Shown here piece by piece: positions 3,204-47,293 of a stretch of 64,000 nucleotides of DNA. The DNA is from Patescibacteria group bacterium (GTDB lineage Bacteria; Patescibacteriota; Dojkabacteria; GCA-002793355), in contig BOKM01000001.1 in the NCBI GenBank assembly GCA_016860985.1, positions 856,040 through 920,039 on the forward strand. Direction: 5' to 3'. Within the stretch, counting starts at the first letter, position 1, and each line of letters opens with the position of its first letter. Both the position numbers and the translations under genes were made by a program. The notes under the pieces were generated by a model. The model saw nothing but the letters and a program-made list of their open reading frames with translations, was not told where the DNA came from and ran no database searches.

Positions 3204-4115
3204 ATGGTAAAATACATTGTGGAAATTCATATTATTTTTGGTCCAACCGCTTCGAGCAAAACAAAGATGGCGCAAGCACTTTGGGAAACATATCACTACC
3301 CTATTCTTTCCGTAGACTCACGCAAAGTTTACAAAGGAGCAGATATTGGGACGAATAAGTTATCGCTTCTTGAGTTCAAAAAAAATCACTCTGAAGTTTT
3401 AGTCGGTGGAATTGATTTTAGGCAGCCGTCGGAAGAAATAAATGTTTATGAATTTCAGCAGCATGTATATGGTTGGATTGAGGAAAACCAAGAAACAATA
3501 AACAAATTTGGCGGGCTTATTATTCATGGAGGAACGGGATTATATTTAGATGCGATTTTAGAGGGCAAGTCATTTCTTTCTCAACGAAATGAGGAGCTTC
3601 GCGAATCTCTGGCAAATGAATCTGTTGAAAAGTTGCAAGAAATTGCAGCTAAAGAAAATACCCCAGCTTATGAAAAATTGAACGAAAGTGATCGTCAAAA
3701 TCCAAGAAGGCTCATACGAGTTATAGAGAACAAAGATCTTGCACCAGAAAAGGTAGATAGCAGAAGTACATTTTTCTTGAATAGCACTATTACGTGGCAT
3801 ATTAAACTCCCTGAACGGTTGCAGCTGTATACAACAATAAATGAGCGAGTGTACCGATATTTTGTTGAAGGTTGGCTCGATGAAGTCTCCTCTCTCCGTT
3901 CACAGTTTGGAGATAATTCTCCTGCCTTGCAAATGATGGGTTACAAACAATTAGTCGCATTCCAGCGTGAATATACAAACTGGTCTGATTTGTATAAAGA
4001 GAATGCGCCTGAATTCCAAAAGGTTGTTGCTCTCATTCAGCTCGAGCATCGCCGGTATGCCAAGAGGCAAGAAACATGGGCAAAAAAGTATATTCGACAG
4101 CAAAAAAATAACTAA
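3204..4115 (+). CDS. miaA: tRNA dimethylallyltransferase
   Basis: N-terminal P-loop IIFGPTASSKT followed by SVDSRKVYKGADIGTNK, the classic MiaA motif pair; 303 aa; TAA stop. Confidence 0.85.
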   Translation: MVKYIVEIHIIFGPTASSKTKMAQALWETYHYPILSVDSRKVYKGADIGTNKLSLLEFKKNHSEVLVGGIDFRQPSEEINVYEFQQHVYGWIEENQETINKFGGLIIHGGTGLYLDAILEGKSFLSQRNEELRESLANESVEKLQEIAAKENTPAYEKLNESDRQNPRRLIRVIENKDLAPEKVDSRSTFFLNSTITWHIKLPERLQLYTTINERVYRYFVEGWLDEVSSLRSQFGDNSPALQMMGYKQLVAFQREYTNWSDLYKENAPEFQKVVALIQLEHRRYAKRQETWAKKYIRQQKNN

Positions 4116-4780
4116 CCAAACCGACTTTCCTTTAATATACTCCTAGCCGCTGCTACTTCTGGGTAATGAGCTCGAACGAGGTCCCAAAATACTTTGGAAT
4201 GATTGTGGTGCATAAGGTGAGATAGTTCATGAATAATGACGTAATCAATAACCTCTGGCGGATAATGAACTAGTCGAAGATTGAAGGTTAGGTTACCAGT
4301 TGTTGTGCAACTTCCCCACAAGGATTTTACATACTTTAATCGCATTCGACGATGTTTTTTTTGCGAGATCTGCGGCTCGAATATAGCGATTCGAGCCGCA
4401 AGATACTGAGTCAGTTCGGGGGCAAGTAGTTCATAAAATTTCTTTCTTTGAAGGCGGTTTGTCCTTGTTTGCACGGATACAATATTCCCTTGTGTATTGA
4501 TTTGTAATGTCGTGCTTTTGGCACGTTCAAGTACTACTGAATACAATGCTCCGAATAGATAGAACGTGTCACCGCTCAGGATTGTAGACGGGATTTTGTT
4601 TTGTTTGGGAACCGATAGCGATTTTACTAAGAAGATTGTGTTGCTGCTAAGAAATTCGGCAATTCTGCTAATCGCCATTCTGCGAGGGGCTCTCAATTCA
4701 AGCTCCCGATTGTTTGTTATCTTTAGCGTTGTAGACCTAAATCGTTTTGAAGACTGTATTGTGTTAATTGTAATTGCCAT
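4112..4780 (-). CDS. YgjP-like metal-dependent hydrolase (DUF45/M48-like, HExxH...NHS)
   Basis: C-terminal VIDYVIIHELSHLMHHNHSKVFWDLV matches the HEL(C/S)HLxxxNHS signature of the YgjP/DUF45 family. Confidence 0.6.
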   Translation of the reverse strand: MAITINTIQSSKRFRSTTLKITNNRELELRAPRRMAISRIAEFLSSNTIFLVKSLSVPKQNKIPSTILSGDTFYLFGALYSVVLERAKSTTLQINTQGNIVSVQTRTNRLQRKKFYELLAPELTQYLAARIAIFEPQISQKKHRRMRLKYVKSLWGSCTTTGNLTFNLRLVHYPPEVIDYVIIHELSHLMHHNHSKVFWDLVRAHYPEVAAARSILKESRFG

Positions 4781-4960
4781 GTTGTTTTCTCGTTCTGCTA
4801 TACATTATAATGGAATATGCAACGACGATTTATCTGGACAATACTATTACTTTTAATTCTCTGTTGCACCGCTCTCGTTGTTGATTCAATCTGGATGGAA
4901 AGACGCCTAAACACTCGTAATTTTGTGTATCCTGGGAATACTGAACTCTTTGGTGAATGA

Positions 4961-6271
4961 CTATCCAATGAGCTCTTTTCCTAGATATTTTTGCAATACC
5001 TGCGGCACTCGAATCTTCCCTTCTTTTGTTTGGTTTTGTTCTACTAACGCAATTAAGAAGCGTGGGAGCGCAATTGCAGTGTTGTTTAACGCATAGGCAA
5101 ATGCCTTTGTTCCATCGGCTCGTTTTACTCGAATGTTGTTTCTTCTTGTTTGGAAATCGCGCATATTAGAGGCAGAATGTGTTTCTCCGTAGCTACCTTT
5201 TCCAGGCATCCAAGACTCAATATCGTACTTTTTGTACTGAGGCTCGCCCATATCTCCTGTACACATCGAAAGAACTCGGTAATGGATTCCCAAACCTTGC
5301 AAAATTTCTTCTGCATTATTGAGAATTTCTGTGTGCATCGCTTCTGCTTTTTCTTCGTCTGGCTCCATAATAACAACCTGCTCAACTTTCATGAATTCGT
5401 GTACTCGGTAGATACCTTTAACGTCTTTACTGTAACTACCAATTTCTTGGCGGTAACAAGGAGAAAGACCTGCAAGCTTCAGTGGTCCGTTGGTTAAATC
5501 AAGTGTTTCATTGGCGTACATTGCCATTAGTGGCTGTTCCGCAGTTGCTGCAAGGTATAGTTGATCGGTTACTTCTGCCCCTGTTTCATCTACCCCGCCA
5601 CTCTTTAGTCGATAGGTATCTGTTGGTGGGCTCCAAGGAAACTGTGCTGCACCAAACAAAACGTGTTCTTTGACAATAATCGGTGGTGTGGTGATTTCAA
5701 ACCCCTTTTCTCGCAATTTTTCGAGTGCATACATGAGTACTGCCCATTCGAGCATGGCTCCGTCTCCTTTTAAGAAATAGCCTCGAAAACCAGATACTTT
5801 AACACCTCTTTCAAGATCAAGTAATCCAAGATTTGTCATTAAATCGACATGGTTTTTAGGTTCAAAATCGAACGCAGGTTTTTCTCCCCACATATGATGC
5901 ACGGTATTACCCGATTCATCTGGTCCTATTGGCGTATCTGCAGATGGAATTCCTGGAAGAAATGACATTAAGTCGTTAAGTTCACTCTCGAGTGAGTTGA
6001 GTTCACTCTCTTTTTGGGCTATCTGCTCTTTAATTTTCTTGCCTTCTTCGATAATGCTTGCTCTTTCGTCAGTGGAAGCTTTTTGAATGCGCTCTGCATT
6101 TTCATTGCGATTTGTTCGTAATAACTGAACCTCAGAAGTTAAAGCTTTTACGGAGGACGCTAATTCGATGATTCTATCAACTTTTTCTGGTGCAGTTCCG
6201 CGTACCCCTTTATTGGTGATTGCCGCCTTAACGACATCGGGGTTCGCTAAAACAAATTGTAGGTCTAACAT
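4961..6271 (-). CDS. serS: serine--tRNA ligase
   Basis: 436 aa; N-terminal coiled-coil arm (MLDLQFVLANPDVVKAAITNKG...), class II core motifs (RVHEFMKVEQ, GETHSASNMRDFQTRR); TAG stop. Confidence 0.9.
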   Translation of the reverse strand: MLDLQFVLANPDVVKAAITNKGVRGTAPEKVDRIIELASSVKALTSEVQLLRTNRNENAERIQKASTDERASIIEEGKKIKEQIAQKESELNSLESELNDLMSFLPGIPSADTPIGPDESGNTVHHMWGEKPAFDFEPKNHVDLMTNLGLLDLERGVKVSGFRGYFLKGDGAMLEWAVLMYALEKLREKGFEITTPPIIVKEHVLFGAAQFPWSPPTDTYRLKSGGVDETGAEVTDQLYLAATAEQPLMAMYANETLDLTNGPLKLAGLSPCYRQEIGSYSKDVKGIYRVHEFMKVEQVVIMEPDEEKAEAMHTEILNNAEEILQGLGIHYRVLSMCTGDMGEPQYKKYDIESWMPGKGSYGETHSASNMRDFQTRRNNIRVKRADGTKAFAYALNNTAIALPRFLIALVEQNQTKEGKIRVPQVLQKYLGKELIG

Positions 6272-9885: not shown

Positions 9886-10752
9886 ATGTTTGGAATCATA
9901 TATGGTTTATTAGCTGCTGTTGGTCAAGGGTTGGGCTATGCAGTGTTAAAGAAAAGCTTTTCTGAACGCCCTGCTTCCTTGGCATATTTTTACGATATGC
10001 TGCTAGGTATTCTTATTTGGGTACCTATTTCATTGGTGTTAGGAATTCAGTGGGATATGTTGTCTACTGTTTTTTGGTATGCCTTACTCAGTGCGTTGCT
10101 GGCAGAAGCTTTTGTCTTTTTTGTATTGTCAAAAGGTGATATTTCGCTGACTCAACCGGTATTTTCGACCTATCCATTGTTTACGTTACTTTTCTCTCGT
10201 GTTGTTAACGGAGATATTTTATCTTTACCAGTGATTATATCAATCGTTTTTGTAATGGGTGGAATCATAATTCTTGCTTTCCCGGCCACTTTCGATAAAG
10301 CAGAACTAAAAAAACGTGCCCTACTATTGTGGCCACTTGCCGGAGCTATTGCTGTTGGAATATCGGATAGTGTGTCAAAAAACATATTGGATAAAACTTC
10401 AACAGGCACTTTCCTGTTCTCCCTTGCCTTTGCACAGATTCCAGTAGCAATTGGTTATTTGTGGGCGGAAAAACAGAAGCTTACTGATGTCGTCGACATG
10501 TTCAGAAACTACAAAACCTATCTTTACTCGTTTCTGGGTTCTTTTTTTATTGTAAGTTCACTCGTATTCTTCTGGCTTGCCTTTACGTATACCTCGGCAT
10601 CGATTGCGTCTCCACTTACTGCGACATATGTGGTCTTTGCCCTACTCTTTGGTACACTCATTGTCAAAGAAAAAGTAGCGCGAAAGGATATCATCGGAAT
10701 AGTTATCACTGTACTCGGCGTATTAGCCCTCAGTTTTCTTGTTGCTCAATAG
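9886..10752 (+). CDS. EamA/DMT-superfamily membrane transporter
   Basis: 288 aa, ~10 TM segments in two halves; TAG stop. Confidence 0.55.
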   Translation: MFGIIYGLLAAVGQGLGYAVLKKSFSERPASLAYFYDMLLGILIWVPISLVLGIQWDMLSTVFWYALLSALLAEAFVFFVLSKGDISLTQPVFSTYPLFTLLFSRVVNGDILSLPVIISIVFVMGGIIILAFPATFDKAELKKRALLLWPLAGAIAVGISDSVSKNILDKTSTGTFLFSLAFAQIPVAIGYLWAEKQKLTDVVDMFRNYKTYLYSFLGSFFIVSSLVFFWLAFTYTSASIASPLTATYVVFALLFGTLIVKEKVARKDIIGIVITVLGVLALSFLVAQ

Positions 10753-10756
10753 TTGA

Positions 10757-12073
10757 TTAGCTAATCACTTTTGCTATTTCTTCCAGTGAAATTGCTTTCT
10801 GCTCTTTGGTACGTAAATCCTTGAGCATAACAGTCTGATTCTTTTGTTCTTCTTCGCCAGCAATTACTGCGTACGGTATTCCCTTTTTGTCGGCGTACTT
10901 GAGTTGTTTGTCGAGCTTGTCGGGAGCTGGATACAAATCGGTATTTACACCTGTTGCTCGCAATTTGCTTGCAACTTCGTACGCATACTCAGTTAGTTCA
11001 GTTGAGCCACCTGGGAACTGCGTTACAAGGACTTTGGTTTTTGTTACAAGCTCAGGTAAAAGATTCCAACCCTTCAAGAACTCACCAAGCGTAATATCTC
11101 CCATAGCAAATCCTGTTGCAGCCAAGTCGAATTTCCCATAGATATTGATTAATCTATCAAAGCGTTCGCCTCCAAACATTGAGCGTTTGTTTTCTGGGTT
11201 TTTATCAAAAACTTCGTAAACGAGGCCGTCGCTATAATCAAATCCTCTGATGATTGCTGGATCAAATTCACAGTATTTTATGAGATCTCGTTTAGTGAGT
11301 GCCACGGTAAGTGCTTTTAGGTTTGCGTAGCCTTCGTTTTGTTGCAGAATATTCGTTGGAATAACTTTGTCCAGCGATTCAAATGTTGTGTTCATAAAAG
11401 CTTCGATATCTCTTGCTGCTGCTTGAGTAATCCCAGCCTCGGTGAGCATTTCTTCAAATTCTTCTGCACTTACCTTCTTTCGCTTATCCATAAGCCTGCG
11501 GGCGGTGAGCTGTTGGTCATCCGATAACTTGAGGTAGTCATTAAGCAAAGCAGTAATAATTCTGCGGTCACTAAAGTAAATACGGTACATTGATTCATCT
11601 GCTTTGAATTCCTGCATTATTGTGATGATAAGCGAAAAAATCTCTAGGTCAGCAGATACTTCTGGTACACCAAAAATGTTGGCTTCGAGTTGGTAAAACT
11701 CTCGACCTCTACCCTTTTGAGGTTTTTCAAAACGCCAGTTGTTGCCAATCATGAACCATTTAATCGGCTTTTGCAGTTCTGGGTATCTTGCAGCAATCAT
11801 TCGTACGGTACTTGGAGTTAACTCAGGGCGAATGGCAACACTTCTGCCCCCCTTATCTTCGAAGGAAAACAGTTGGGTATTCACAATTTCTTCTCCTGAT
11901 TTTGATGCAAAAACCTCTAGATTCTCAAGAACTGGAAAATCGTATTCTTCAAAGCCAAAACGCTCGCAGGCCTTTTTCCAAGTAGAAAATATATAGTTAC
12001 GTAGTCGCATCTCTTCAGGATAAAAATCTCGAGCACCTTTGTAAGGTTGAGCTGATAAGTAGTTTGAGTTCAT
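10757..12073 (-). CDS. hisS: histidine--tRNA ligase
   Basis: 438 aa; KGARDFYPEEMRLRNYIFSTWKKACERFGFEEYDFPVLE (HisRS motif 1 region), class IIa core and C-terminal anticodon-binding domain. Confidence 0.9.
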   Translation of the reverse strand: MNSNYLSAQPYKGARDFYPEEMRLRNYIFSTWKKACERFGFEEYDFPVLENLEVFASKSGEEIVNTQLFSFEDKGGRSVAIRPELTPSTVRMIAARYPELQKPIKWFMIGNNWRFEKPQKGRGREFYQLEANIFGVPEVSADLEIFSLIITIMQEFKADESMYRIYFSDRRIITALLNDYLKLSDDQQLTARRLMDKRKKVSAEEFEEMLTEAGITQAAARDIEAFMNTTFESLDKVIPTNILQQNEGYANLKALTVALTKRDLIKYCEFDPAIIRGFDYSDGLVYEVFDKNPENKRSMFGGERFDRLINIYGKFDLAATGFAMGDITLGEFLKGWNLLPELVTKTKVLVTQFPGGSTELTEYAYEVASKLRATGVNTDLYPAPDKLDKQLKYADKKGIPYAVIAGEEEQKNQTVMLKDLRTKEQKAISLEEIAKVIS

Positions 12074-12143
12074 TATTCAATTATAACAAGTAAAATAGGT
12101 AATTAGTATTGTGTGGAATTGCTTTAAATTTGGAAAACAAATC

Positions 12144-12473
12144 CTATTGGCTTTGATGCTTATCGGTTTCGGATTTGTTTTTTAGGCGATCAATAACCAG
12201 TTGGTAGGTTCCATTGCCCCGTTTTAACCATTTGTTTACTCTAGTTACCGTTGCGATGCTAATTCCTGTCTCTTTTGCAACGGTCCTCTGGCTTTTACCT
12301 TCTGATAGTACCTGAGCAACTCGCAAACGCCCTAAAAATTCTGCGATTTCGGCCTCTGTAAAGATATCTTTAAAAAATAGTGAAAGTTCCTGTTCGTTTG
12401 TAAGCGTTCGAAACACATTAACTAAAAATGTTATGTTTTTTTCAAGTGCTCGCGTCATATTGTAATGATACAA
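12144..12473 (-). CDS. TrpR/YerC-like helix-turn-helix DNA-binding protein
   Basis: 109 aa; QRTVAKETGISIATVTRVNKWLKRG matches the TrpR-like HTH. Confidence 0.5.
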   Translation of the reverse strand: MYHYNMTRALEKNITFLVNVFRTLTNEQELSLFFKDIFTEAEIAEFLGRLRVAQVLSEGKSQRTVAKETGISIATVTRVNKWLKRGNGTYQLVIDRLKNKSETDKHQSQ

Positions 12474-12530
12474 TAAACGGGCGAATATTGCAATTTTCGA
12501 CAGGAGTTACGTGTGAAAAATCTGTTAAGT

Positions 12531-13415
12531 CTATTTTTTTGCGACGCGTTCAAATTCCTTTGCCACTTCTTCTAATCCTTTCTGGTTTAGGGAGGTGCAA
12601 TCGGTAAACCATGTGTCAGAAGTATCAAGTCCGTGACCTTCGAAGTGCTGCGCAAGACCAACGATTTTAATCGACTGTGGGTAGATGTTGCTTAGTTCAA
12701 GAATCGCTTCGTTTATTTCATTAACTGCACTCTTTGTATATTCAGTACCGTAATTCGGGATTAATCCCTTACAGAGTGTTGCATCGCCAGTTCCTCCTAA
12801 TGGATCAGGAAGTGTTGCAAGCAGTACGGTGTATCCCTCGGGAAATACTCCAGGACGGGCGGAAGTGAGATCTAAAAAGGTCGAAATTTCTTTTACAACT
12901 TTTGTAGCAATACTGGTAATTGACTCTTTGTTCGTAATCCCGTTCAGCAATGTATTTTGACCTGTAATCGCTGTAAAATAGACATGTTCGGTAATTGGCT
13001 TTGTAAGGTCGTTATAACCAAGAACCGCTTGGTCCCGAAGTGAGGAAATAGTTCTCCCTTGTTCCGCTCTGCTGGTTACTTCAATTTTTCTTGATTGCTT
13101 GGTTTGCAAATAGTCAGAAACTCGTTGCGTATACAGGGGGACGCCATCGGTCGATTTTTCGCCAATTGATATGACTGCTTGAACTGTTGAAGAAGAGGCG
13201 CTCGAAAAGAGTGATACGTCAAACTGGTTCTGCCATAAAAACATTCCTCCACCGGTAAGAACTGCCCCAATTGCGAGAATCCCAATCGATTGAGTGACTC
13301 TTTTTTTTGTTGTCGCAGCCATCATATAACACGAAAGCAAAATTATATGCCGTTGCCCTAGTGTACAACATTTCAGGTGCTTGGCATAGTATTGATTTCT
13401 TTTCAGATTGTGCAA
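12531..13415 (-). CDS. secreted/membrane-anchored hypothetical protein
   Basis: 294-aa ORF; probable start at internal MMAATTKKRVTQSIGILAIGAVL signal-anchor; no clear family. Confidence 0.35.
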   Translation of the reverse strand: MHNLKRNQYYAKHLKCCTLGQRHIILLSCYMMAATTKKRVTQSIGILAIGAVLTGGGMFLWQNQFDVSLFSSASSSTVQAVISIGEKSTDGVPLYTQRVSDYLQTKQSRKIEVTSRAEQGRTISSLRDQAVLGYNDLTKPITEHVYFTAITGQNTLLNGITNKESITSIATKVVKEISTFLDLTSARPGVFPEGYTVLLATLPDPLGGTGDATLCKGLIPNYGTEYTKSAVNEINEAILELSNIYPQSIKIVGLAQHFEGHGLDTSDTWFTDCTSLNQKGLEEVAKEFERVAKK

Positions 13416-13424
13416 GAATGATAA

Positions 13425-14042
13425 ATGAAAAAAACTGCTCTGTTTTTTGTTGCTGTGCTATTTGCAACCACTATTTTTACTACTTCTTCAGTTGCTGCGG
13501 CAACGAAGGAGTTTGGAAGTGAAACGGTTATCCCACTGGTAAATCCGGATGATACTAGTGCAGATAATCAAGTCAGTGGTACGGTTGAGGATAGTGCAGG
13601 AAATTTCTTCTATCGACATACAAATCAAAATCCAGACAAATTGCGAAAAATCGCGTCGGACGGAACTCATGCATGGACGATAGACTTACCTGCAACAGAA
13701 ATAAATGGGTCTCGTTTAGTACCGGATAATCAAGGGGGAATTTATTATCTTTATTATAAAAATGACCCTTCTCCTTCAGTACAAAGTATGTATTTAACAC
13801 ATTATAATGCAAACGGTACAGCAAATTTTACAGAAACGGAGTTGTTGAATACGGCATTTTCGGTACAGACGGAATACGCAGCCGCCAGATCTAATGGAGA
13901 TTTGTATATCATATTTGCAGAACGCAACCATGGAGATTCATTCGGAAAGGTTCTCAAGTTCAAGGTAATGGTTGTAAACACAAGCGGAGCGATCCAAAAT
14001 ACAATGACCACAAGGACCCTAAACCCTACTGAGCATCGATAG
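13425..14042 (+). CDS. secreted protein, N-terminal segment (signal peptide) of a larger interrupted surface protein
   Basis: MKKTALFFVAVLFATTIFTTSSVAAATKE signal peptide; terminates at TAG 14040-14042 in the same frame as the next ORF. Confidence 0.5.
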   Translation: MKKTALFFVAVLFATTIFTTSSVAAATKEFGSETVIPLVNPDDTSADNQVSGTVEDSAGNFFYRHTNQNPDKLRKIASDGTHAWTIDLPATEINGSRLVPDNQGGIYYLYYKNDPSPSVQSMYLTHYNANGTANFTETELLNTAFSVQTEYAAARSNGDLYIIFAERNHGDSFGKVLKFKVMVVNTSGAIQNTMTTRTLNPTEHR

Positions 14043-16676: not shown

Positions 16677-17993
16677 ATGCGTTTTCTGATTGTAACTCCA
16701 GAAATGGAGGACACAAATTATCGTGGAGTGCAGTTTGTCACCAAGCATGTGCTTAGGGGGCTGTCTGAACAGGGGCACGAAGTAGTCTTGTTAACTAGCC
16801 ACCCGAAGGTCAAAATAAACGTTAAATCAGAAAAGTTACGATGGCGTGTACTCAATACTTATTTTCGGCAGTACTTACAGATAGGTGCGCAGTTAACTAA
16901 AAGAATGGCTCCGCGGGCAGGTACTTTTACTAGTATTTTCAAATTCCTTGTTGCTCTTTTCAGAAAGGCTCCAGTTATTGTAGTGGATAAAACACAGACC
17001 TCAGGATTGAACTTAGTAAAATACATCGATAAAGCTGTTAATCTTCCTTTCTTTTACCGAATGGCAGTTGCAATGCCAAAATTTTTTAGAAAACTAGCTA
17101 TCGAAAAAATTGCAAAACAGGTAAAAGCAGATGTCGTTTACTATACCTTTCCATTAGCTGTTCCTAAACTCTCTTCTAGCAAAGTTATCCATATTATCTA
17201 CGACCTTATCCCATACGAAATAACTGAGGAACCGGTAGAAAACGAATGGCTAAGTAAACTTGCAAAACGAATTGATTACGTTTCTCATAACTCTGATCTT
17301 ATTTTTACTATTTCTCAGGATTCTGAAAACAAGATAAAAGAAGTTGAGCCGCATGCAAAGGTTATGAATATTGGCGCAGCTATGTCGGCCTTCGAATACG
17401 AGCTCGCTGGGTACACTCATGACTCCCCCGTTCTCATAAAAAACAACCTCGTTGGAAAACCTTACCTCCTCTTTATTTCTTCAATCGAAAGACGAAAGAA
17501 CGTTCACCGATTGCTGCAAGCTTTCGTTTCTATTTCCGATAAGACTGATGCTTCACTCGTTATTGTTGGAAACAAAACAGGCGCGTTTAAAGGAATTGCC
17601 GAGGAATTGGATGGAGCTCCGAAAAGTGTCAAAAAGCGAGTTATATTTACAGGTTGGGCATCTGAGTACGACAAATACTCTCTTTTGAAGAATTGTGTTG
17701 CCCTCGTTAACCCCACTCTGTATGAAGGTTTTGGTTTGCAGCCTCTTGAAGCAATGTTAAATCACATTCCTGCAGTTTCTAGTGTTGCAGGTGCGCTTGC
17801 CGAAGTTTGTGGTGACGCTGTCCTAAAGATTCAAGATCCTTATTCTGTACCTGAAATCGCCCATGCCCTACTTCGAATTCTTGAAGATAAAAATCTTCGG
17901 CAAGAGTTGGTCAAAAAAGGAAACATTCAGTCTCAAAAATATACTGAGCAGGTAATGTACAAGCGAATCAAAGAGGCTCTTGAAGCACTCTAG
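16677..17993 (+). CDS. glycosyltransferase family 1 (GT4-like)
   Basis: 438 aa; C-terminal EGFGLQPLEAM and surrounding GT-B fold motifs. Confidence 0.75.
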   Translation: MRFLIVTPEMEDTNYRGVQFVTKHVLRGLSEQGHEVVLLTSHPKVKINVKSEKLRWRVLNTYFRQYLQIGAQLTKRMAPRAGTFTSIFKFLVALFRKAPVIVVDKTQTSGLNLVKYIDKAVNLPFFYRMAVAMPKFFRKLAIEKIAKQVKADVVYYTFPLAVPKLSSSKVIHIIYDLIPYEITEEPVENEWLSKLAKRIDYVSHNSDLIFTISQDSENKIKEVEPHAKVMNIGAAMSAFEYELAGYTHDSPVLIKNNLVGKPYLLFISSIERRKNVHRLLQAFVSISDKTDASLVIVGNKTGAFKGIAEELDGAPKSVKKRVIFTGWASEYDKYSLLKNCVALVNPTLYEGFGLQPLEAMLNHIPAVSSVAGALAEVCGDAVLKIQDPYSVPEIAHALLRILEDKNLRQELVKKGNIQSQKYTEQVMYKRIKEALEAL

Positions 17994-21317: not shown

Positions 21318-21366
21318 CATGTGCCCTTGAACAATACCTGCTTTATACTCTATAATACGAATTAGT

Positions 21367-21438
21367 CCAGAGGTAGCTCAATGGTAGAGCAGGAGACTGT
21401 AAATCTCTTGGTTAGGGGTTCAAGTCCCTTCCTCTGGA
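21367..21438 (+). tRNA. tRNA with anticodon GUA (Tyr by anticodon), class I architecture (5-nt variable loop), C1:G72, A73, no encoded CCA
   Basis: Hand-folded: acceptor CCAGAGG/CCTCTGG, T8A9, D-arm GCTC-AATGGTA-GAGC, anticodon arm GGAGA-CTGTAAA-TCTCT (GACTGTAAATC as in E. coli tRNA-Tyr), variable TGGTT, T-arm AGGGG-TTCAAGT-CCCTT, discriminator A, followed by T8 run. Confidence 0.75.
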
Positions 21439-21451
21439 TTTTTTTTATGCC

Positions 21452-22399
21452 CTACTCTCCCTTCCCTAAATTGCAGTCAAATGAGAGTGTCGCCTCAGTA
21501 ACGTTTGGAGGTGCCGTAAATTTGAACTTTGGTGGTATTTTGTCTGTATAGGCAATAGTTTGTCCTTTTGAGTCTCGAGCACGCACAGAAAATTTAACTT
21601 GCAGCCCTGTTAAATTTTTGATGTTTGTCGTCCTCGAGTTTAGGCTAAATGTCAGTAATGAGGATTTTTCCATCTCGCTCTTTAGTATTGTGGTACTTAC
21701 ACAGGGTTCAATTTGGCTCCCCGCAGCAGCGTGATAAGCACAACTCCGAACCAAATAATCGGTAATTCGTTCATCGCACGTTGCTGAAGTAATTGCACTG
21801 TTACCTGTAGGTTTGGTGACCGTTACTTTTAGGTTGACTCTATGCTTTGAAGATGCGGGATATGGTGTGGGTGTTGGCGTTGGCTTAACACCAAGGTTAC
21901 AGAAATAATTCAATACAAACGTTGCGGTCCCGTTTGCTGCTACGAACGGTCCCTGGATGTTCTGTTTTTTCGCAATCATTCTTCCGTTTAGATCGTAAGC
22001 TTGAATCGTATAATAGGCACGGTAATAAGAATCTCCAACATTATTCGCTATTTCGTCTCTGTCCCGATTGTCAACTCTGAAGTCTAGTACCATTGGTTCA
22101 AACTCATTGGTCCCTAATTGTATGGTTTTTGATGTAGAACCGATGATTCGTTTCCCAACTTCTTTATACACGTACGCAGTTACTTTATATTCCTTAACAG
22201 TGCCACATATTTCGGGTACTGAATTATCGATAATAAATGTTGTAGGAAGCGTAAATTTTGTAGTTGCTCTCCCAAATGCAGCATTCGGGTCAACATTAAA
22301 AAGTTGTGTGGTAACAAAATAACCAAGTACAAATACTGAAAGTAGCGCTGCTAGTGATACTACGATTTTCTTTACTGGGGAGGTGTTTTGTTTTTTCAT
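21452..22399 (-). CDS. secreted hypothetical protein (two domains joined by PTPTPTP linker)
   Basis: 315 aa; N-terminal TM/signal (IVVSLAALLSVFVLGYFV); no family recognised. Confidence 0.4.
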   Translation of the reverse strand: MKKQNTSPVKKIVVSLAALLSVFVLGYFVTTQLFNVDPNAAFGRATTKFTLPTTFIIDNSVPEICGTVKEYKVTAYVYKEVGKRIIGSTSKTIQLGTNEFEPMVLDFRVDNRDRDEIANNVGDSYYRAYYTIQAYDLNGRMIAKKQNIQGPFVAANGTATFVLNYFCNLGVKPTPTPTPYPASSKHRVNLKVTVTKPTGNSAITSATCDERITDYLVRSCAYHAAAGSQIEPCVSTTILKSEMEKSSLLTFSLNSRTTNIKNLTGLQVKFSVRARDSKGQTIAYTDKIPPKFKFTAPPNVTEATLSFDCNLGKGE

Positions 22400-22437: not shown

Positions 22438-24258
22438 TTATTGCTTATTGAGTGAAGAAATAGCGCGAAGAGCGATATCCTTCGAAGTCGCGAAATCCAA
22501 AGGACCTATTAATTCTTCTGGGCAGGCTTCTCGTACCACATCTGGTATATCTTTATATTCTCGATATATTCTATTTTTTGGTAGGACAATTCCTAGTGCG
22601 CGCATGTCAATTTCATCTTGTGCATTTACCGCATCCAATCGGAAGAGCGTTAATTCCCTTCCATCTTTTGCAAACGCGCGGAACAGTACTCCTCTAAAAC
22701 TACTAGTTTCAATCTGTACCGAAATTAGTCGTAGGTTAGTTTCTAATCGCTCATCTTCTGCGTATTCAATAGCTCGAATAGTTTCTGATGGAGAAAGAAA
22801 GCCTTTCTTTTCACAGCGGACAAATATCGATCGCGTTTTATATTCTTCAGTTGTTCTTGCTCGTTGCGAAGCGGCTCCAACAGTTATAGTATTACTTCCC
22901 CAATCCTTGTGAACAGTAAACCCTGAGCGAAATTTTTCTACGATTGCCCATGTGGTACCACCATTCGTGTCGCCAATTCCATATGAAAGGAGCCGCCCCC
23001 ACGTAAGCTTTTCTGAAGTCCTTCCCCTAATATCATCTGATAAATATATCGAATAGATACTTCGGTGATGCAGTAAATCAAGTGTAGAAAGAAGTAGGTG
23101 TGCACTTTCAGTAAAATCAACTCTTCCGCTTTCTTGGGGAGATAATCCGTTCGCATTTTCCATTGCGACTCTTACTGATGCAACATCTGGTGTCTGTTCA
23201 ATTTTTACTCCGCGTTGCGCGAGTAACGCTAATCCTTGTGAAATGGCGGGATCTTCTTGTTCTACAAAGGCGGGAATGGGAAGGTCCTTTTTTATAAATT
23301 CTATAAGGTGTTTGGCACCTTCCACCGGCGATTCTCTGTATCTTCGTAGGTAAACAAATACATCCGATTCAAAGCCTTGAGCTATCGTACCTGGTGAAGC
23401 GACCATGGTAGGATTCCTATCTGGTGCGATTTGTGGTCCAACGGGACTTGCCCACAAGTTCGGGAGCATTTGTCGTAGTCTTTTTGTTGGTGATGATGCG
23501 GTCGCAGGCATATCTGGGGCTTCGGGCGAAGTAATCGGTGCCCGTGGTTGTTGATACCCGTGAATGTCGGGGTGCAGCATGCCATTGGAAGATGTGTCCA
23601 TCCACGCGTAACGCACCGCTTTTTGATCTTGTTGGTTTTGAGCGTAGATTATTGTGTCATAAGCCAATCGGGTGTCAGCAGGTGCTGATTTATCTTTTGC
23701 TCTGGGGGCTGTCTTGGCCTTTATAAAAATTGTGGGAACATCAGTACCCTCTTTGGGTGGAGTCCTTTGGATAAGTAGCCCAACTTTTTGAATGGAATAA
23801 TCGGGGTACCACTCTCCCACCTTCAAATCTGGATAAAAATCTGTTGGTGAGTCATCTCTTTTTTGCTTCAGTTGATAGGGTTTTATAACGATGGTAACAG
23901 AAAAATGCCCATAATCTACTGTGCTGCATCGGGCACGGTACTCCGTAAGCGGTGTGCGATGCGCAGGAGAAATCATAGTCGATTCTGGATATTCGTCTCT
24001 GTCCATATCGTAAATCCTTTTATTCTCTGCCTTTGGGTTAAAAACTTTCCATTTTGAGGTCGGAATAAGAGTATCGTCCTGTCCCAATGTTTCTGTAGTT
24101 GCTTCGAGTCCAAAATCGGCTGGCGGAAATCCAAATTCTTCGAGCACTCTACGTGCTTTATCGGTCACTTGCACCAGTGCAACCGTTTCTGCTTGTTCGT
24201 TGCGAACCACTTTCTTTTCTACTGGTTCAGGTCTAGCCGATGTTTTCCACAACTGCAT
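22438..24258 (-). CDS. large hypothetical protein (606 aa), compositionally atypical (GC-richer)
   Basis: Long uninterrupted ORF; no recognisable catalytic motif; local GC ~50% versus ~30-45% elsewhere. Confidence 0.45.
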   Translation of the reverse strand: MQLWKTSARPEPVEKKVVRNEQAETVALVQVTDKARRVLEEFGFPPADFGLEATTETLGQDDTLIPTSKWKVFNPKAENKRIYDMDRDEYPESTMISPAHRTPLTEYRARCSTVDYGHFSVTIVIKPYQLKQKRDDSPTDFYPDLKVGEWYPDYSIQKVGLLIQRTPPKEGTDVPTIFIKAKTAPRAKDKSAPADTRLAYDTIIYAQNQQDQKAVRYAWMDTSSNGMLHPDIHGYQQPRAPITSPEAPDMPATASSPTKRLRQMLPNLWASPVGPQIAPDRNPTMVASPGTIAQGFESDVFVYLRRYRESPVEGAKHLIEFIKKDLPIPAFVEQEDPAISQGLALLAQRGVKIEQTPDVASVRVAMENANGLSPQESGRVDFTESAHLLLSTLDLLHHRSIYSIYLSDDIRGRTSEKLTWGRLLSYGIGDTNGGTTWAIVEKFRSGFTVHKDWGSNTITVGAASQRARTTEEYKTRSIFVRCEKKGFLSPSETIRAIEYAEDERLETNLRLISVQIETSSFRGVLFRAFAKDGRELTLFRLDAVNAQDEIDMRALGIVLPKNRIYREYKDIPDVVREACPEELIGPLDFATSKDIALRAISSLNKQ

Positions 24259-24273: not shown

Positions 24274-25533
24274 TTAGTTCTGTTGCAACTCTCGTTCAAT
24301 CTCCATCAATCTGTTGTATTTACTGACACGTTCGCCTCGAGTTGGACCCACTTTAACATAAGCACTGCCAACTGCAACCGCAAGGTCGGAAATGAAGTGA
24401 TCATTTGTTTCTCCACCTCCTCGATGTGAGGTAATGGTTATTAGGCCATGCTCATTTGCTATTTTGCAACATGCAACTGTTTCTGAAAGTGTGCCAATTT
24501 GGTTTGGTTTGATAATGATTCCTGTAATGGCGTCGAGTTCAATTGCCTTTCTGAGTCTCGAAATATTGGTAACAGTTAGGTCATCTCCGATATGCTTAAT
24601 CCCCTTCTCCTTCAAAAGCTTATTCAAGGCAACCCAGTTATCCCAGTCATCTTCTGCTAGCAAGTCTTCTAATGACACAAATGGATATTTGTCTAAAAGT
24701 TCTGAGTAGTAGTTGATTAACTCTTCACCAGTAAACTGTCGGCCTTCTAGTTTAAGCTCATAGTTCCCATTAAAGAATTCACTCGCAGCGGCATCTACTG
24801 AAATTCCAAGTTCTTTTCCAGGAGTAAAACCGGCTTTTGTGATTGCCTGCACAATGTATTCAAACGGTGCTTCGTTGGTTGGTATGCCGTTTGGTGCAAA
24901 TGCTCCTTCGTTGCCAACGTTTGTGGAAAGCTTGCTCGCTTTTAGAATTTTTTTAAGTTGATGGTAGGTTTCAAGTGCTTTCCGTATGTTTTCGGTGACA
25001 CTCCCCCCTTCTTTCGCGGTAATACAAAATTCTTGAAAATCGGTTGTTTCGTCTGCATGCTTTCCTCCTTCTATCACTACAACCATTGGCTGAGGTAGTT
25101 TGGTTAAATCAGTAATTAGCCCGTAGGTCTGCATAATGTACTTATAAAGAGGCATTCTGTTTGCGTTTGCTACTGCTCTTGCAACTGCAAGTGATACTGC
25201 GAGTATTGCATTCCCGCCCAATCGTGCTTTATTGACTGTACCATCTAGCCGAATCATCGCTGTGTCAATTTCTACCTGATTCTCGGCTGGAATATTTGTA
25301 ATTGTGGGGAGAATCTCGTTGAGAATATTTGAAATTACTGTTAAGTTTCCTTGTCCATTCCAACGTGACATATCTCCGTCTGTGAGAACGGTAGCTTCAT
25401 GGGTACCAGCAGAAGCCCCGTAAGGAACCGATGCAACACCAACAGAACCAGTATCTAGTGTCACTTTTACCTCAACTGTTGGATACCCGCCAGAAGCAAG
25501 AATTTCGTAAGCAATTAGTTTTGCAATTTTCAT
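24274..25533 (-). CDS. eno: enolase (phosphopyruvate hydratase)
   Basis: MKIAKLIAYEILASGGYPTVEVKVTLDTGSVGVASVPYGASAGTHEA... and C-terminal SHRGGETND motif; ORF-track 5' extension to 25677 rejected in favour of the conserved MKIAKL start (ATG at 25531-25533 complement). Confidence 0.9.
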   Translation of the reverse strand: MKIAKLIAYEILASGGYPTVEVKVTLDTGSVGVASVPYGASAGTHEATVLTDGDMSRWNGQGNLTVISNILNEILPTITNIPAENQVEIDTAMIRLDGTVNKARLGGNAILAVSLAVARAVANANRMPLYKYIMQTYGLITDLTKLPQPMVVVIEGGKHADETTDFQEFCITAKEGGSVTENIRKALETYHQLKKILKASKLSTNVGNEGAFAPNGIPTNEAPFEYIVQAITKAGFTPGKELGISVDAAASEFFNGNYELKLEGRQFTGEELINYYSELLDKYPFVSLEDLLAEDDWDNWVALNKLLKEKGIKHIGDDLTVTNISRLRKAIELDAITGIIIKPNQIGTLSETVACCKIANEHGLITITSHRGGGETNDHFISDLAVAVGSAYVKVGPTRGERVSKYNRLMEIERELQQN

Positions 25534-25622
25534 GTGAAGCAGCGTGATATTACTACTACAGTGTAACAAATTGTTGGCAACACAACAAATCAGGAGATGC
25601 ACATTCTCAATGAAGCAGTTAT

Positions 25623-28592
25623 TTGCTATACTGCCTCGTGGATACTGCCTTGTTATCTTTAGGAGTTGGTTTTGCAAATTTGTGTATTGGTGTCATTGTC
25701 CTTATTAGAGGAAATGGTGTGAAACTTGCCCGAGACTTCTTCGTACTTTCTTTTTTGTGTGGTTTATGGGCAGCATTTGATTACCTCTCTGCCTCATCGA
25801 ACTCCGCATATTTCGCTTGGTACTACGGAGGTTTTAGAACTGTTATGTCCTATGTTGCAGTCGTCTACTTATTAAAATTTGTGTTTCAGTATGTTGGCAA
25901 ATATTCTTCCATAGCAAAAGGTGTAGTTGGGCTTTTGCTTTTTATTTCTCTGGGGCTCTCCTATATCCGCTTTTTTACTCCATTACTAGTTCTTGAAATG
26001 ATTTATCGTAATGGGGAGTTTAGGATAATGCCGGGGCCACTTTATTTCGGTCCAGTTTCGGTAATGTTTGCACTCGCAATTATTTCTGGCTACTTCTTGT
26101 GGAGATACTACAAGGGACTTCAAACACATGAATCAAAAACAAAGGTTGGAATTATGTTGTTTGGCTCTTTTACCTCTATTATTATTGCGATAATCGCGTA
26201 TGGAGTATTACCATTATTTGGGATTGGTGGTACCAGCATTGGTGTCGGAGCAATGGGATTATTTCCCCTGTTTGTTGGATTATCAATACTTAGGTACGAC
26301 CTAGATACAAACCTATCGTTTACTGCCGGAAGTCTACGTTCAAAAATATTTTCTGCTGCAATGGCAGCAACTTTCTTTGTAATTATTCCTTCACTTATAC
26401 TTTTGAATGTAATTTTTGTACGAGATATTACTGTTCGAGGCAGTTTTCAGCTGAACGAAGATGTCATCGAAAAACGCGCTGTCATCAGTAATTATCTCAG
26501 TGACATTACGGCACGAGCACAAACTTTAGCGCAATCAGAAACGGATGAAATGACTAGTGAGCGTTTGCAGCATGAAATAGAAGAAAGTAAAGGTACCACG
26601 AGCGAGATCCTTACACTGTCTATTATAGATTCTTCCGGAAGTTCAATCGTTTCCGCCTATCCGCACAGCAGGGAATTAGAATCGTGGGTCGGTGACTTAT
26701 CATTAAAATCCGCTCAGTTACTTGGGGCTTACAATAGTGGAACTTCGATGATGCCTGTGGTTGCTGCTCCAATTCCATCTGGCGTTTATGCGGGGTACTA
26801 TTTTTTGGTTGGATTTGCGCCAACTGATTTCTATAGCGCAACTACGGAAGAGGCAATGTCATTGTTTAACACCTCTAAAGCGTACGTACTGGATAAACAG
26901 GGAGTACTAGTGACTCCTTATGGGAGTTATACGTCATTTATTGGCAGTAGTCAGAATGCTCCTACCAGGCATGTATCGTGCGAAGAACCTCTTAGCTCCG
27001 GGAGTTTCACTTTTTCGAAATATTTAGATGTAAGAGGTATTCCTGTAGTTGGGACCGGCGTACCGATTGCAAACAACGGTTGGTGTCTTATGGTTGAAGT
27101 AGATAAAGAAGAGATTGAAGCTACAAGTAGAACGATGATTGTCTCCACAATGGCGATTGGAATGTTAAGTGTTATTTTTGTAACTCTTGTAGCCGAATTA
27201 CTTGGAGCACTAATATCAAAACCAATCGGGCAGGTTAAAGAAGGTGTTGCAAGAATTATGTCAGGAGATTTTTCTACTCCTGTTGCTGTTGACACGCAAG
27301 ACGAGATTGGGGAACTTTCGCGTGCTTTTGACGAAATGACTGTAGAACTAAAAGATGCGCAAGAGAATATCACCGCAAAAGTTAGGTCGCAAACGCAAGA
27401 TCTTGAAGCGCAGCGAAGTGATTTGCTTAAACAGCAAAAGCAGATGATTTCTCTCCTCTCTGAATTAGAAGATGAAAAAGAAAGAACGGACATATTAGCG
27501 CGTGACCTAGAGAAATTTAAACAAGCTGCTGATGCTGCAAACGATCATATTGTAATCACTGACACAGAAGGTCGTATCATTTACGCAAATAAATCGGTTA
27601 AACGAATCACTGGTTTTGATCCAGAAGAAATACTTGGGCAAAAAGCAGGAAGTCGAGAGAACTGGGGCGGTCAAATGCCTTTAGCGTTTTACAAAAAGCT
27701 TTGGAAGACGATCAAAGTTGATAAGAAGCCGTTTAAGGGAGAAGTTACAAATAAGAAGAAAAATGGAATGTTGTATACTGTAGTTGCTTCAATTTCTCCT
27801 GTTAAGGACAATAAAGGTAACGTACTGTTCTTTATCGGTTTAGAACGAGATATTTCTAAAGAGAAGGAGATTGACAGAGCAAAGAGCGAGTTTGTTTCAT
27901 TGGCTTCTCATCAATTAAGAACGCCACTTTCGGCAATTAATTGGTATGCAGAGATGCTTATCGACGGAGATGCTGGAAAATTAAACAAAGAACAACAACA
28001 GTACGTCAAAGAAATTTATGATGGAAACCGTAGAATGGTCGATTTGGTAACGGCGCTTCTGAATGTTTCTCGGCTTGAACTTGGAACCTTTATGGTAGAG
28101 CCAACACTACAATCATTGCAAGATCTAGCCACTCAAGCGCTTAAAGAAATGGAACCAATGCGAAAGGCAAAGCAGATTAAGATTCACCAGCAATTTGATA
28201 AATGCGAGCCGCTCATGGTGGACAAAAAGCTTATGTATATAATCTTCCAGAATCTGATTTCGAATGCACTGAAATATACTCCTCAAAAAGGTGAAGTCAC
28301 AGTCTCGATACAAAAGAAATCAAAGTATATCAACATTAAAGTAGCTGATAATGGTATGGGAATTCCCAAAGAAGAGCTGCCAAAATTGTTCGAAAAGTTG
28401 TATCGAGCAAGTAACGCAAAAGAAAGTGCAACAGAAGGAACAGGACTTGGTTTGTACATTGTAAAAGCCATACTTGACGCAACCGAAGGGAAAATCGAAG
28501 TCGATTCTACCATTGGTAAAGGTTCTGTGTTTACAGTTAAAATTCCCTTGTCAGGAATGAAGCCAAAACTTGGTTCAAAGAAGCTAACTTAA
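25623..28592 (+). CDS. multidomain sensor histidine kinase (N-terminal 7-TM module, extracytoplasmic sensor, HAMP, coiled coil, PAS, HisKA, HATPase_c)
   Basis: 989 aa; PAS (DHIVITDTEGRIIYANKSVKRITGF), H-box SHQLRTPLSAI, G-boxes DNGMGIP / GTGLGL. Confidence 0.8.
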   Translation: MLYCLVDTALLSLGVGFANLCIGVIVLIRGNGVKLARDFFVLSFLCGLWAAFDYLSASSNSAYFAWYYGGFRTVMSYVAVVYLLKFVFQYVGKYSSIAKGVVGLLLFISLGLSYIRFFTPLLVLEMIYRNGEFRIMPGPLYFGPVSVMFALAIISGYFLWRYYKGLQTHESKTKVGIMLFGSFTSIIIAIIAYGVLPLFGIGGTSIGVGAMGLFPLFVGLSILRYDLDTNLSFTAGSLRSKIFSAAMAATFFVIIPSLILLNVIFVRDITVRGSFQLNEDVIEKRAVISNYLSDITARAQTLAQSETDEMTSERLQHEIEESKGTTSEILTLSIIDSSGSSIVSAYPHSRELESWVGDLSLKSAQLLGAYNSGTSMMPVVAAPIPSGVYAGYYFLVGFAPTDFYSATTEEAMSLFNTSKAYVLDKQGVLVTPYGSYTSFIGSSQNAPTRHVSCEEPLSSGSFTFSKYLDVRGIPVVGTGVPIANNGWCLMVEVDKEEIEATSRTMIVSTMAIGMLSVIFVTLVAELLGALISKPIGQVKEGVARIMSGDFSTPVAVDTQDEIGELSRAFDEMTVELKDAQENITAKVRSQTQDLEAQRSDLLKQQKQMISLLSELEDEKERTDILARDLEKFKQAADAANDHIVITDTEGRIIYANKSVKRITGFDPEEILGQKAGSRENWGGQMPLAFYKKLWKTIKVDKKPFKGEVTNKKKNGMLYTVVASISPVKDNKGNVLFFIGLERDISKEKEIDRAKSEFVSLASHQLRTPLSAINWYAEMLIDGDAGKLNKEQQQYVKEIYDGNRRMVDLVTALLNVSRLELGTFMVEPTLQSLQDLATQALKEMEPMRKAKQIKIHQQFDKCEPLMVDKKLMYIIFQNLISNALKYTPQKGEVTVSIQKKSKYINIKVADNGMGIPKEELPKLFEKLYRASNAKESATEGTGLGLYIVKAILDATEGKIEVDSTIGKGSVFTVKIPLSGMKPKLGSKKLT

Positions 28593-46648: not shown

Positions 46649-47293
46649 TAGATACGTGAGTACCTGTTTGGGCGAAACATTGCTTCTTAGATACTCACTG
46701 CATTTTTGTAAAAGTTGCAACTTCGATTGAGTATCACTGCCCTTTTGCAAGTGAATATAGAGCTCACTCAAAAATGTTTCTGCGGACTGTCTGGTCCATT
46801 CTTTTTTTTGTATATGAGCATAGCCTTGTAAGATATCTGTGTTCGCTTCCGTAAAGTAGGACAATGTTTCGCTTAATTCTCTCTCCTTATTGCCCTGAAG
46901 TGAGCCCCCGAGATATTTTACGGTAGCTCTCGAGCGAATAGTAGGTAGCAAAGAGTTTTCGTCGACAACTGCCAAAATGTAATGTACCGTTTTGGGGTGG
47001 TCTTCTAACTCCTTAAGCATGGCATTCTGCGCCTCGGGGGTAGTTTTCTCAAACCCAAGAATTATCCCAAGATGAAGCGGTGCCTTAAAGGGCTTTTTGT
47101 GTAGAATTCGAGTAAATGCGCGTATATCAGCGATCCCAATCGACTCTTGTTCGTAGCCATTGAGCAAGTGAACGTCCGGATGCACGCACTCTTCTATATT
47201 GGTTACATCTAGACTCTCAATCCGTTCACGTATCATTAACGACAATTCGTTCTTAATTACGTCAAGGTCATTCCCAATTATTAGAAATGTCAT
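46622..47293 (-). CDS. holB: DNA polymerase III delta'-like subunit (short form lacking P-loop)
   Basis: …TPEAQNAMLKELEDHP…LPTIRSRATV matches the clamp-loader delta' sensor-2/arginine-finger region. Confidence 0.5.
   Translation of the reverse strand: MTFLIIGNDLDVIKNELSLMIRERIESLDVTNIEECVHPDVHLLNGYEQESIGIADIRAFTRILHKKPFKAPLHLGIILGFEKTTPEAQNAMLKELEDHPKTVHYILAVVDENSLLPTIRSRATVKYLGGSLQGNKERELSETLSYFTEANTDILQGYAHIQKKEWTRQSAETFLSELYIHLQKGSDTQSKLQLLQKCSEYLRSNVSPKQVLTYLLFGFSDKI

Follow-up and report, generated by a model that had tools for sequence, protein, structure and literature searches.

A class I tRNA-Tyr carrying the archaeal/eukaryal identity set in a bacterium of probable Dojkabacteria affiliation

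The tRNA gene, its signals and its neighbors

The stretch of DNA analyzed here, which is 64 kb in length and is called the window throughout, contains exactly one tRNA gene that ARAGORN reports as tRNA-Tyr(gta) at 21366-21439. Upstream of this gene is a cluster coding for a glycosyltransferase, an ABC-2 transporter, an FkbM methyltransferase and a sulfotransferase, and downstream are two orphan ORFs. The features that are relevant to this analysis are the following:

3204..4115, plus strand: MiaA (tRNA isopentenyltransferase), Pfam IPPT, 1.3e-38
21327..21356, plus strand: sigma-70-like promoter, TTGAAC-18 nt-TATAAT, from a consensus scan with 10/12 matches
21367..21438, plus strand: tRNA-Tyr(GUA), 72 nt, class I, from ARAGORN, Rfam RF00005 and direct reading
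21367-21373 with 21431-21437, plus strand: acceptor stem, CCAGAGG/CCTCTGG, with C1:G72
21376-21390, plus strand: D arm
21392-21408, plus strand: anticodon arm, loop CTGTAAA, with the anticodon GTA at 21399-21401 running into A36-A37-A38
21409-21413, plus strand: variable loop, TGGTT, 5 nt
21414-21430, plus strand: T arm
21438, plus strand: discriminator A73
21439..21446, plus strand: T8 run directly 3' of the discriminator, from reading of the sequence, with no CCA encoded
21452-22399, minus strand: orphan ORF 1, no Pfam and no PHROG match
22438-24258, minus strand: orphan ORF 2, no Pfam and no PHROG match

Direct reading of the gene from 5' to 3' divides its first half into the arms CCAGAGG-TA-GCTC-AATGGTA-GAGC-A-GGAGA-CTGTAAA-TCTCT and the part after the anticodon arm into TGGTT-AGGGG-TTCAAGT-CCCTT-CCTCTGG-A. 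The variable loop is 5 nt long and this tRNA is therefore a member of class I. The short D loop has 7 nt, and every invariant position (U8, A14, G18G19, U33, G53, T54-Psi55-C56 and A58) is present. The Rfam RF00005 covariance model matches 21367-21438 at 72.8 bits (gathering score 29, E = 5e-14) over model positions 1-71 of 71. An earlier note made from the sequence alone had described a GUA anticodon in a class I fold, a 5-nt variable loop, C1:G72, A73 and a T8 run after a 3' end that encodes no CCA. Each structural feature in this description proved to be correct. The 74-nt ARAGORN call in the window differs from the 72-nt gene only by U(-1) and U74, and the extra base at either end is an artefact of these two residues. 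A single-sequence minimum free energy fold does not give the cloverleaf, as the anticodon and T arms re-pair (z = -3.0). The cloverleaf is accepted despite this fold because it is supported by the covariance model as well as by the covariation described below.

Two further species-representative genomes, L001 (JADYZG01) and L002 (CAZCKT01), carry the exact 72-nt tRNA, as do the JGI metagenome contigs L019 and L020, which were the only two contigs that matched a scan with a degenerate tRNA pattern. In the L002 copy, which has an A at position -1, ARAGORN gives the 72-nt register. A more distant tRNA-Tyr of 72 nt is found at the equivalent locus (17076-17147, 73.4 bits) of L024, the complete genome CP129477.1 that is labelled Ca. 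Dojkabacteria bacterium. Overall, the copies in the relatives score 72.8-73.4 bits.

The promoter-like element in the window ends 10 nt before the mature 5' end of tRNA-Tyr, and an equivalent -35/-10 pair is located 7-10 nt upstream of the tRNA in L001, L002, L019, L020 and L024, where the other flanks have diverged. We infer from these sequences that the sigma-70-like element drives transcription of tRNA-Tyr. The gene would then constitute a stand-alone transcription unit with its own sigma-70-type promoter, so placed that the leader would be just a few nucleotides long. T-runs are found 3' of the tRNA in L001, L019 and L020 and none is found in L002 and L024, so a T-run is not essential. The T8 run of the window probably represents a terminator tail, with the acceptor/T-arm helix as its hairpin, and it may end transcription of tRNA-Tyr. 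An encoded CCA is often missing from bacterial tRNA genes, and since none is encoded here the CCA of this tRNA-Tyr must be added post-transcriptionally. This step would be enzymatic, and the resulting tRNA would decode UAU and UAC.

The earlier note had placed this tRNA among bacterial protein genes, and this description holds for the whole window, which codes for LCP, MiaA, SerRS, HisRS, ValRS, MurF, PilB/PilT, GyrB, enolase, pyruvate kinase and a ClpB-like ATPase. Just beyond its left edge, GlyRS alpha and beta are coded by one fused gene.

Host lineage, conservation and inheritance of the tRNA gene

When GyrB from the window was used as a query, the named relatives were Ca. Dojkabacteria/WS6, of which CP129477.1 is 73% identical and about a dozen others are 56-59% identical. 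Among the 120 matches listed there was one labelled Nomurabacteria and none labelled Saccharibacteria. A Saccharibacteria lineage, which is the label carried by L002, was dropped on the basis of these GyrB relatives. In a neighbor-joining tree of GyrB the window clade, which includes CP129477.1, branches deeply as sister to the main named Dojkabacteria and is not nested inside them. The same species as the window is also present in several Logan assemblies and in GCA_049325555.1 (Patescibacteria group bacterium) as judged by exact-protein matches, and its genome is small (~1.05 Mb). Thus, one marker protein together with submitter labels points, with moderate confidence, to a host lineage affiliated with Dojkabacteria (WS6).

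The tRNA is 100% identical in the window, L001, L002, L019 and L020 while orthologous proteins are 71-90% identical. Specifically, the relatives exhibit 88% identity to the window for GyrB, 81% for enolase and pyruvate kinase, 71% for HisRS and 74% for EamA, and the DNA flanking their tRNA cannot be aligned to the window apart from the -35/-10 promoter-like element. Because 72 of 72 nucleotides are identical across diverged proteins and flanks, tRNA-Tyr is judged to be under purifying selection.

Additional evidence comes from L024, where the tRNA differs from that of the window at 10 positions, 8 of which are located in covarying pairs. Six of these changes form three double-compensatory pairs (31:39 from A-U to U-A, 50:64 from G-U to U-A and 51:63 from G-C to A-U), two others turn the Levitt tertiary pair 15:48 from A:U to G:C, and the remaining two are at loop positions 16 and 59. 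All 21 of the 21 pairs are standard in both tRNA variants with none disrupted, and controls with slid registers gave zero double changes. The shuffle control for covariation, in which 57/500 shuffles reached the observed value, is weak as there are only two distinct tRNA sequences. C1:G72, A73, the GUA anticodon and the 5-nt variable loop are all retained in L024. This pattern of covariation is the one that a functional tRNA gives rise to.

Gene order around the tRNA is also retained to varying extents. The order tRNA-Tyr, enolase, GyrB and pyruvate kinase is kept in L001, L020 has enolase next to the tRNA, and HisRS, EamA and ABC-2 are near the tRNA in L002 and L024. In L001 and L020 a single tRNA_bind gene (115-117 aa) stands alone between tRNA-Tyr and enolase. 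By these comparisons, tRNA-Tyr is both functional and vertically inherited.

Two alternatives to a functional, inherited gene are each very improbable. One is that the locus is a pseudo-tRNA, or resembles a tRNA by chance, and does not serve translation, as might be argued from the missing CCA and from the minimum free energy fold. This is countered by a score of 72.8 bits against a threshold of 29 in an end-to-end match to the model with all invariant positions present, by perfect conservation across diverged genomes with compensatory changes in a distant relative, and by a promoter-like element that is conserved upstream, while a missing CCA is common in bacteria. The other is a recent horizontal gain in which a mobile element or phage brought in both the tRNA and the two orphan ORFs, a form of the co-acquisition that the earlier note had entertained. 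The adjoining orphans do have no Pfam match, are found only in the window species and are absent from its relatives, the GC content dips to 0.36-0.37 around 18-22 kb of the window, and tRNA genes are common integration sites. However, the identical tRNA is found at the syntenic site in relatives that have no orphans, no repeat of at least 11 nt from the 3' half of the tRNA that could resemble an att site is present anywhere in the window, and there is no integrase among the inspected neighbors of tRNA-Tyr. Furthermore, an exact search for the tRNA core in 2.9 million viral contigs (IMG/VR) gave no match, and the orphans match no PHROG family. The low-GC stretch spans transferase genes (glycosyl-, methyl- and sulfotransferase) and ABC-transporter genes that precede the tRNA, as is typical of surface-polysaccharide loci. 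Co-acquisition is thus refuted by the syntenic relatives without orphans and by the lack of an att repeat and of a phage match. Because the relatives have the identical tRNA at the syntenic site without them, the orphans are a lineage-specific insertion beside a tRNA-Tyr that was already there.

Identity elements and comparison with known tyrosine systems

The tyrosine identity elements are A73 and C1-G72 in Archaea and Eukarya and G1-C72 in Bacteria (PMC9976931). The window tRNA exhibits the archaeal/eukaryal set in full, with C1:G72 (present in 6/6 loci, namely the window, L001, L002, L019, L020 and L024), A73, G34-U35-A36 and a short variable loop. It exhibits neither of the canonical bacterial features, which are the long variable arm of class II and G1:C72.

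The anticodon arm presents a different picture. The earlier note had claimed that the arm GACTGTAAATC is common to E. coli tRNA-Tyr, and this agrees with the tyrT sequence, where the anticodon-arm core GACTGTAAATC is the same and the variable arm is 13 nt. E. coli tyrT/tyrU thus share with the window tRNA the GUA anticodon, this core, A73 and a bacterial-type promoter, but they are class II with G1:C72 whereas the window tRNA has a 5-nt variable loop and an inverted first pair. Archaeal and eukaryal tRNA-Tyr align to the window tRNA with no variable-arm gap. The cytoplasmic tRNA-Tyr of M. jannaschii, yeast and human share with it the class I body, the 5-nt variable loop, C1:G72, A73 and GUA. 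Relative to these tRNAs, the window tRNA differs in having a 7-nt D loop and A37, within A36-A37-A38, and not the G37 that is typical of archaeal and eukaryal tRNA-Tyr, and its gene has a sigma-70-type promoter, has no intron and resides on a bacterial chromosome. The substrate rule for MiaA is A36A37A38, and a MiaA gene is present in the window although it is not physically linked to tRNA-Tyr. MiaA is therefore, on this sequence rule, the likely modifier of A37 in this tRNA. The window tRNA-Tyr is thus a chimera with an archaeal-type acceptor end and body and with a bacterial-type anticodon loop and promoter. Such a chimera would be adapted to bacterial processing and modification, yet to non-bacterial charging.

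A tRNA-Tyr without a variable arm also works in mitochondria, a system of bacterial descent, and loss of this arm is therefore tolerated. The organellar systems (human mitochondria and the Plasmodium apicoplast) kept a bacterial-type TyrRS and relaxed discrimination at 1:72, but they did not adopt the full archaeal/eukaryal set.

The closest known parallel is found within the CPR bacteria, where C1-G72 tRNA-Tyr occurs with an archaeal/eukaryal-type TyrRS in Parcubacteria, Microgenomates, Dojkabacteria (WS6) and Katanobacteria (Mukai, Reynolds, Crnkovic and Soll, 2017, Life 7:8, PMC5370408). Many of these C1-G72 tRNA-Tyr keep the variable arm, although forms that lack it exist, and the TyrRS of WS6 carries an N-terminal PheRS-beta B2 (OB-fold) domain (PMC5370408). 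A literature search on Saccharibacteria or Patescibacteria with TyrRS returned nothing beyond this study. The window resembles these CPR systems in having C1-G72 and A73 in a WS6/Dojkabacteria-affiliated host, and a Dojkabacteria TyrRS that we re-found has the described N-terminal B2/tRNA_bind fusion and is sister to DPANN enzymes. It differs in that many of the CPR tRNA-Tyr retain a variable arm that the window tRNA-Tyr lacks completely, and in that its host clade branches deeply beside the main Dojkabacteria. Judging from accession series and assembly numbers, genomes of the window clade do not appear to be among those examined in PMC5370408.

The charging enzyme and what it implies

A search for TyrRS genes with PF00579 covered the 64-kb window and 10 kb beyond each edge (~84 kb, ~8% of the genome) and found none, and a tblastn search of the same ~84 kb with the B. 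stearothermophilus TyrRS gave no match. No TyrRS gene is present on the L019 and L020 metagenome contigs that carry the identical tRNA. A HMMER scan with M. jannaschii TyrRS against 1.84 billion representatives (clusters at 50% identity) gave 265 clusters at E <= 1e-30. Among these, P0186 is a tRNA_bind(B2)-TyrRS fusion with its gene adjoining bS20 and TsaE, and its closest clusters, roughly 35, include entries named Ca. Dojkabacteria. P0343 is an unfused TyrRS coded directly upstream of infA-rpsM-rpsK-rpsD-rpoA-rplQ. The bacterial clade of archaeal/eukaryal-type TyrRS is sister to the TyrRS of DPANN (Woesearchaeota, Nanoarchaeia).

Several other representatives were considered as the TyrRS of the window clade and rejected. 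P0192, a TyrRS with a membrane anchor, lies in an integrase/HNH island, the surroundings of P0258 resemble those of a giant virus, P0154 has YbaK fused to TyrRS and archaeal surroundings, P0264 is eukaryotic, P0162 is archaeal, and the contig that carries P0252 is too short for a judgement. Others that were looked up by name are from Thaumarchaeota, Natronomonas, a plant, an alga and a fungus, and none of the representatives sampled is from the window clade. An HMM of the Dojkabacteria N-terminal B2 domain run against all TyrRS representatives and the window ORFs gave no further N-terminal fusion and no window homologue, and a protein search with M. jannaschii TyrRS gave, for all 120 matches listed, methanogens or engineered variants, and so does not bear on CPR.

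The best explanation of the locus is that the window tRNA serves the cell as its housekeeping tyrosine tRNA, or at the least is functional. More specifically, we put at roughly 0.8 the probability that it is a functional tRNA-Tyr of a Dojkabacteria-affiliated CPR bacterium that is charged by an archaeal/eukaryal-type TyrRS encoded elsewhere in the genome. Canonical bacterial TyrRS has a C-terminal S4-like domain. The enzyme proposed here would lack this variable-arm-binding domain and would read C1:G72 together with A73. In this CPR lineage it would descend from an ancient transfer out of DPANN-like archaea that replaced the bacterial pair of TyrRS and class II tRNA. A non-bacterial TyrRS/tRNA-Tyr pair in the host was one of the two explanations offered in the earlier note, and it is the one that is best supported, as the host group is reported to have this pair and such a TyrRS was re-found among bacterial core genes in Dojkabacteria. 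For the window genome's own TyrRS, we infer that it is of the archaeal/eukaryal type and that no second, bacterial pair is present.

Two competing readings leave the tRNA functional and alter how it is charged. It is improbable that co-evolution has fitted a bacterial-type TyrRS to the charging of a class I tRNA-Tyr with C1:G72 in a clade with no archaeal/eukaryal-type enzyme. Such re-adaptation has a precedent in the human mitochondrial bacterial-type TyrRS, which charges a tRNA lacking the variable arm and is indifferent to 1:72 (PMC5370408, PMC9976931). In addition, neither the window genome nor CP129477.1 is represented among the best 120 relatives of the Dojkabacteria TyrRS P0186 (at least 474 bits), and reduced genomes often relax identity rules. 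However, relaxation alone does not explain a fixed C1:G72 and A73, the archaeal/eukaryal determinant set, and the C1:G72 flip is kept across genomes with GyrB 73-90% identical to that of the window. Related Dojkabacteria demonstrably have the archaeal/eukaryal-type enzyme, and C1-G72 accompanies this type of TyrRS in every reported CPR case (PMC5370408). The absence of the window clade from the P0186 list is accounted for by its 474-bit cut-off, with the list filled by DPANN sequences at ~60-65% identity. This absence is weak evidence because the GyrB of the clade is ~58% identical to that of the main Dojkabacteria and its TyrRS would probably fall below 474 bits. Still less probable is the coexistence of two systems, with the window tRNA and an archaeal-type TyrRS being accessory or conditional beside a class II tRNA and a bacterial TyrRS. 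Bacterial and archaeal Trp pairs do occur together, duplicated, in Ca. Beckwithbacteria, and a Roizmanbacteria genome has both V-arm-containing and V-arm-lacking C1-G72 tRNA-Tyr (PMC5370408). The region inspected covers ~84 kb of the 1.05-Mb genome. Against this reading, the tRNA is 100% conserved, has a strong promoter-like element and is surrounded by core housekeeping genes in all relatives, and it is therefore as expected of the main isoacceptor. CPR genomes of ~1 Mb also rarely keep redundant pairs of aminoacyl-tRNA synthetase and tRNA.

Taken more broadly, it is unlikely that the clade charges its V-arm-less tRNA-Tyr by either a re-adapted bacterial-type TyrRS or an independently acquired, highly divergent one, and not by the B2-fused DPANN-derived enzyme. 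If it has an independent divergent TyrRS, then help in trans might come from the stand-alone Trbp111-like tRNA-binding protein that L001 and L020 encode beside the tRNA. Either of these routes, if true, would constitute an independent switch of tyrosine identity inside Bacteria.

Under the preferred reading, charging by an archaeal/eukaryal-type TyrRS, the locus is one more case of a known phenomenon, as both the swap and the host group were described in 2017. The novelty implied by the earlier note was thus overstated, and because phenomenon and host group had already been described, no new question is opened. Among domain-specific rules of tRNA recognition, tyrosine identity is a textbook case, and it is the basis of orthogonal pairs for genetic code expansion. 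Bacteria that use the archaeal tyrosine rule indicate that such recognition rules are not hard-wired to domains, and they document co-replacement of an aminoacyl-tRNA synthetase and its tRNA after transfer between DPANN archaea and CPR bacteria. To these cases the window locus adds a clean example without a variable arm, in a clade that is represented by a closed-size 1.05-Mb contig and by the complete public genome CP129477.1.

The tRNA-Tyr promoter and its downstream neighbours

The end of the -10 element lies just 7-10 nt upstream of the mature tRNA-Tyr 5' end in all six loci compared, namely the window and the related loci L001, L002, L019, L020 and L024.

Window 21356-21367, with equivalent sites in L001, L002, L019, L020 and L024: gap between the -10 element and tRNA-Tyr

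Because of this short spacing, the tRNA-Tyr 5' leader is predicted to be about 0-4 nt, which would make the pre-tRNA nearly leaderless. On the other side of the tRNA gene, the two relatives L001 and L020 have a stand-alone tRNA_bind gene, coding for 115-117 aa, that is flanked by tRNA-Tyr and enolase.

L001 254-607, minus strand: stand-alone tRNA_bind gene (PF01588, Trbp111/CsaA-like)
L020 1496-1843, plus strand: stand-alone tRNA_bind gene (PF01588, Trbp111/CsaA-like)

The two encoded proteins share 72% identity. The main Dojkabacteria carry the tRNA_bind fold as the N-terminal part of TyrRS, and an HMM of this TyrRS-fused domain matches the stand-alone proteins of L001 and L020 only weakly, at 16-19 bits. 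No copy of the stand-alone gene was found within the window or its 10-kb flanks, and its position is occupied in the window by two orphan ORFs; compared with L001 and L020, they constitute an insertion between tRNA-Tyr and enolase.

Window 21452-22399, minus strand: orphan ORF, 315 aa, species-restricted
Window 22438-24258, minus strand: orphan ORF, 606 aa, species-restricted
Window 24274-25677, minus strand: enolase ORF as mechanically called, 467 aa

Neither orphan ORF has a match in Pfam or PHROG. The 315-aa protein has a hydrophobic N-terminal segment and a TPTPTP linker, features which suggest a secreted or surface protein. As for enolase, the TTG that serves as start codon in the mechanical call precedes the Enolase_N domain by about 50 codons, and the called ORF overlaps the start of the histidine-kinase ORF. 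The exact 467-aa sequence was not found in the protein collection, indicating that translation probably begins downstream of this TTG.

Synthetases of the region and the label of a relative

Two further synthetases lie in or directly beside the window.

L004 (sequence reaching left beyond window position 1) 10729-13656, directly left of that position: GlyRS, 975-aa alpha-beta fusion
Window 47290-49644, minus strand: ValRS, 784 aa

GlyRS is encoded by one gene (tRNA-synt_2e plus tRNA_synt_2f), without separate GlyQ and GlyS genes. ValRS is short and its alignment covers positions 4-700 of an 860-position model; it therefore appears, from this coverage, to lack the C-terminal coiled-coil domain.

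The record of L002 (CAZCKT010000013.1) is titled 'uncultured Candidatus Saccharibacteria bacterium', a label that is probably a misassignment. The GyrB relative P0431, encoded on a contig equal in length to that of L002, is 88% identical to the window GyrB and groups with a clade in which Ca. Dojkabacteria is the only name given; none of the 120 matches listed for the window protein is a Saccharibacteria GyrB.

Unusual TyrRS proteins outside the window

The TyrRS survey also returned three proteins of unusual architecture.

Representative library: P0206, eukaryote-like TyrRS fusion, 612 aa
L013 (GCA_975961855.1) 3958-5541: P0154, YbaK-TyrRS fusion
L010 (ENA ERZ25039512 contig_34182, 1.157 Mb) 10001-11335: P0192, archaeal-type TyrRS (NF006330, 386 bits)

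P0206 combines a eukaryote-like TyrRS with the C-terminal portion of the catalytic domain of a class II synthetase of the Asp/Lys/Asn type (PF00152, 1.8e-47), and may be either a real bifunctional fusion or a gene-model artefact. In P0154 a YbaK/EbsC-type trans-editing deacylase domain is joined to an archaeal-type TyrRS via a Thr/Pro-rich repeat linker, and the gene surroundings are archaeal (TrmB, radical SAM). Finally, P0192 has a transmembrane extension of about 80 aa at its N-terminus and a degenerate HIGH motif (MHLG). The island in which it lies also contains a phage integrase, HNH, HEPN, an N6/N4 methylase and a TIR-like gene, and P0192 has the appearance of an accessory TyrRS paralogue carried on a mobile element.
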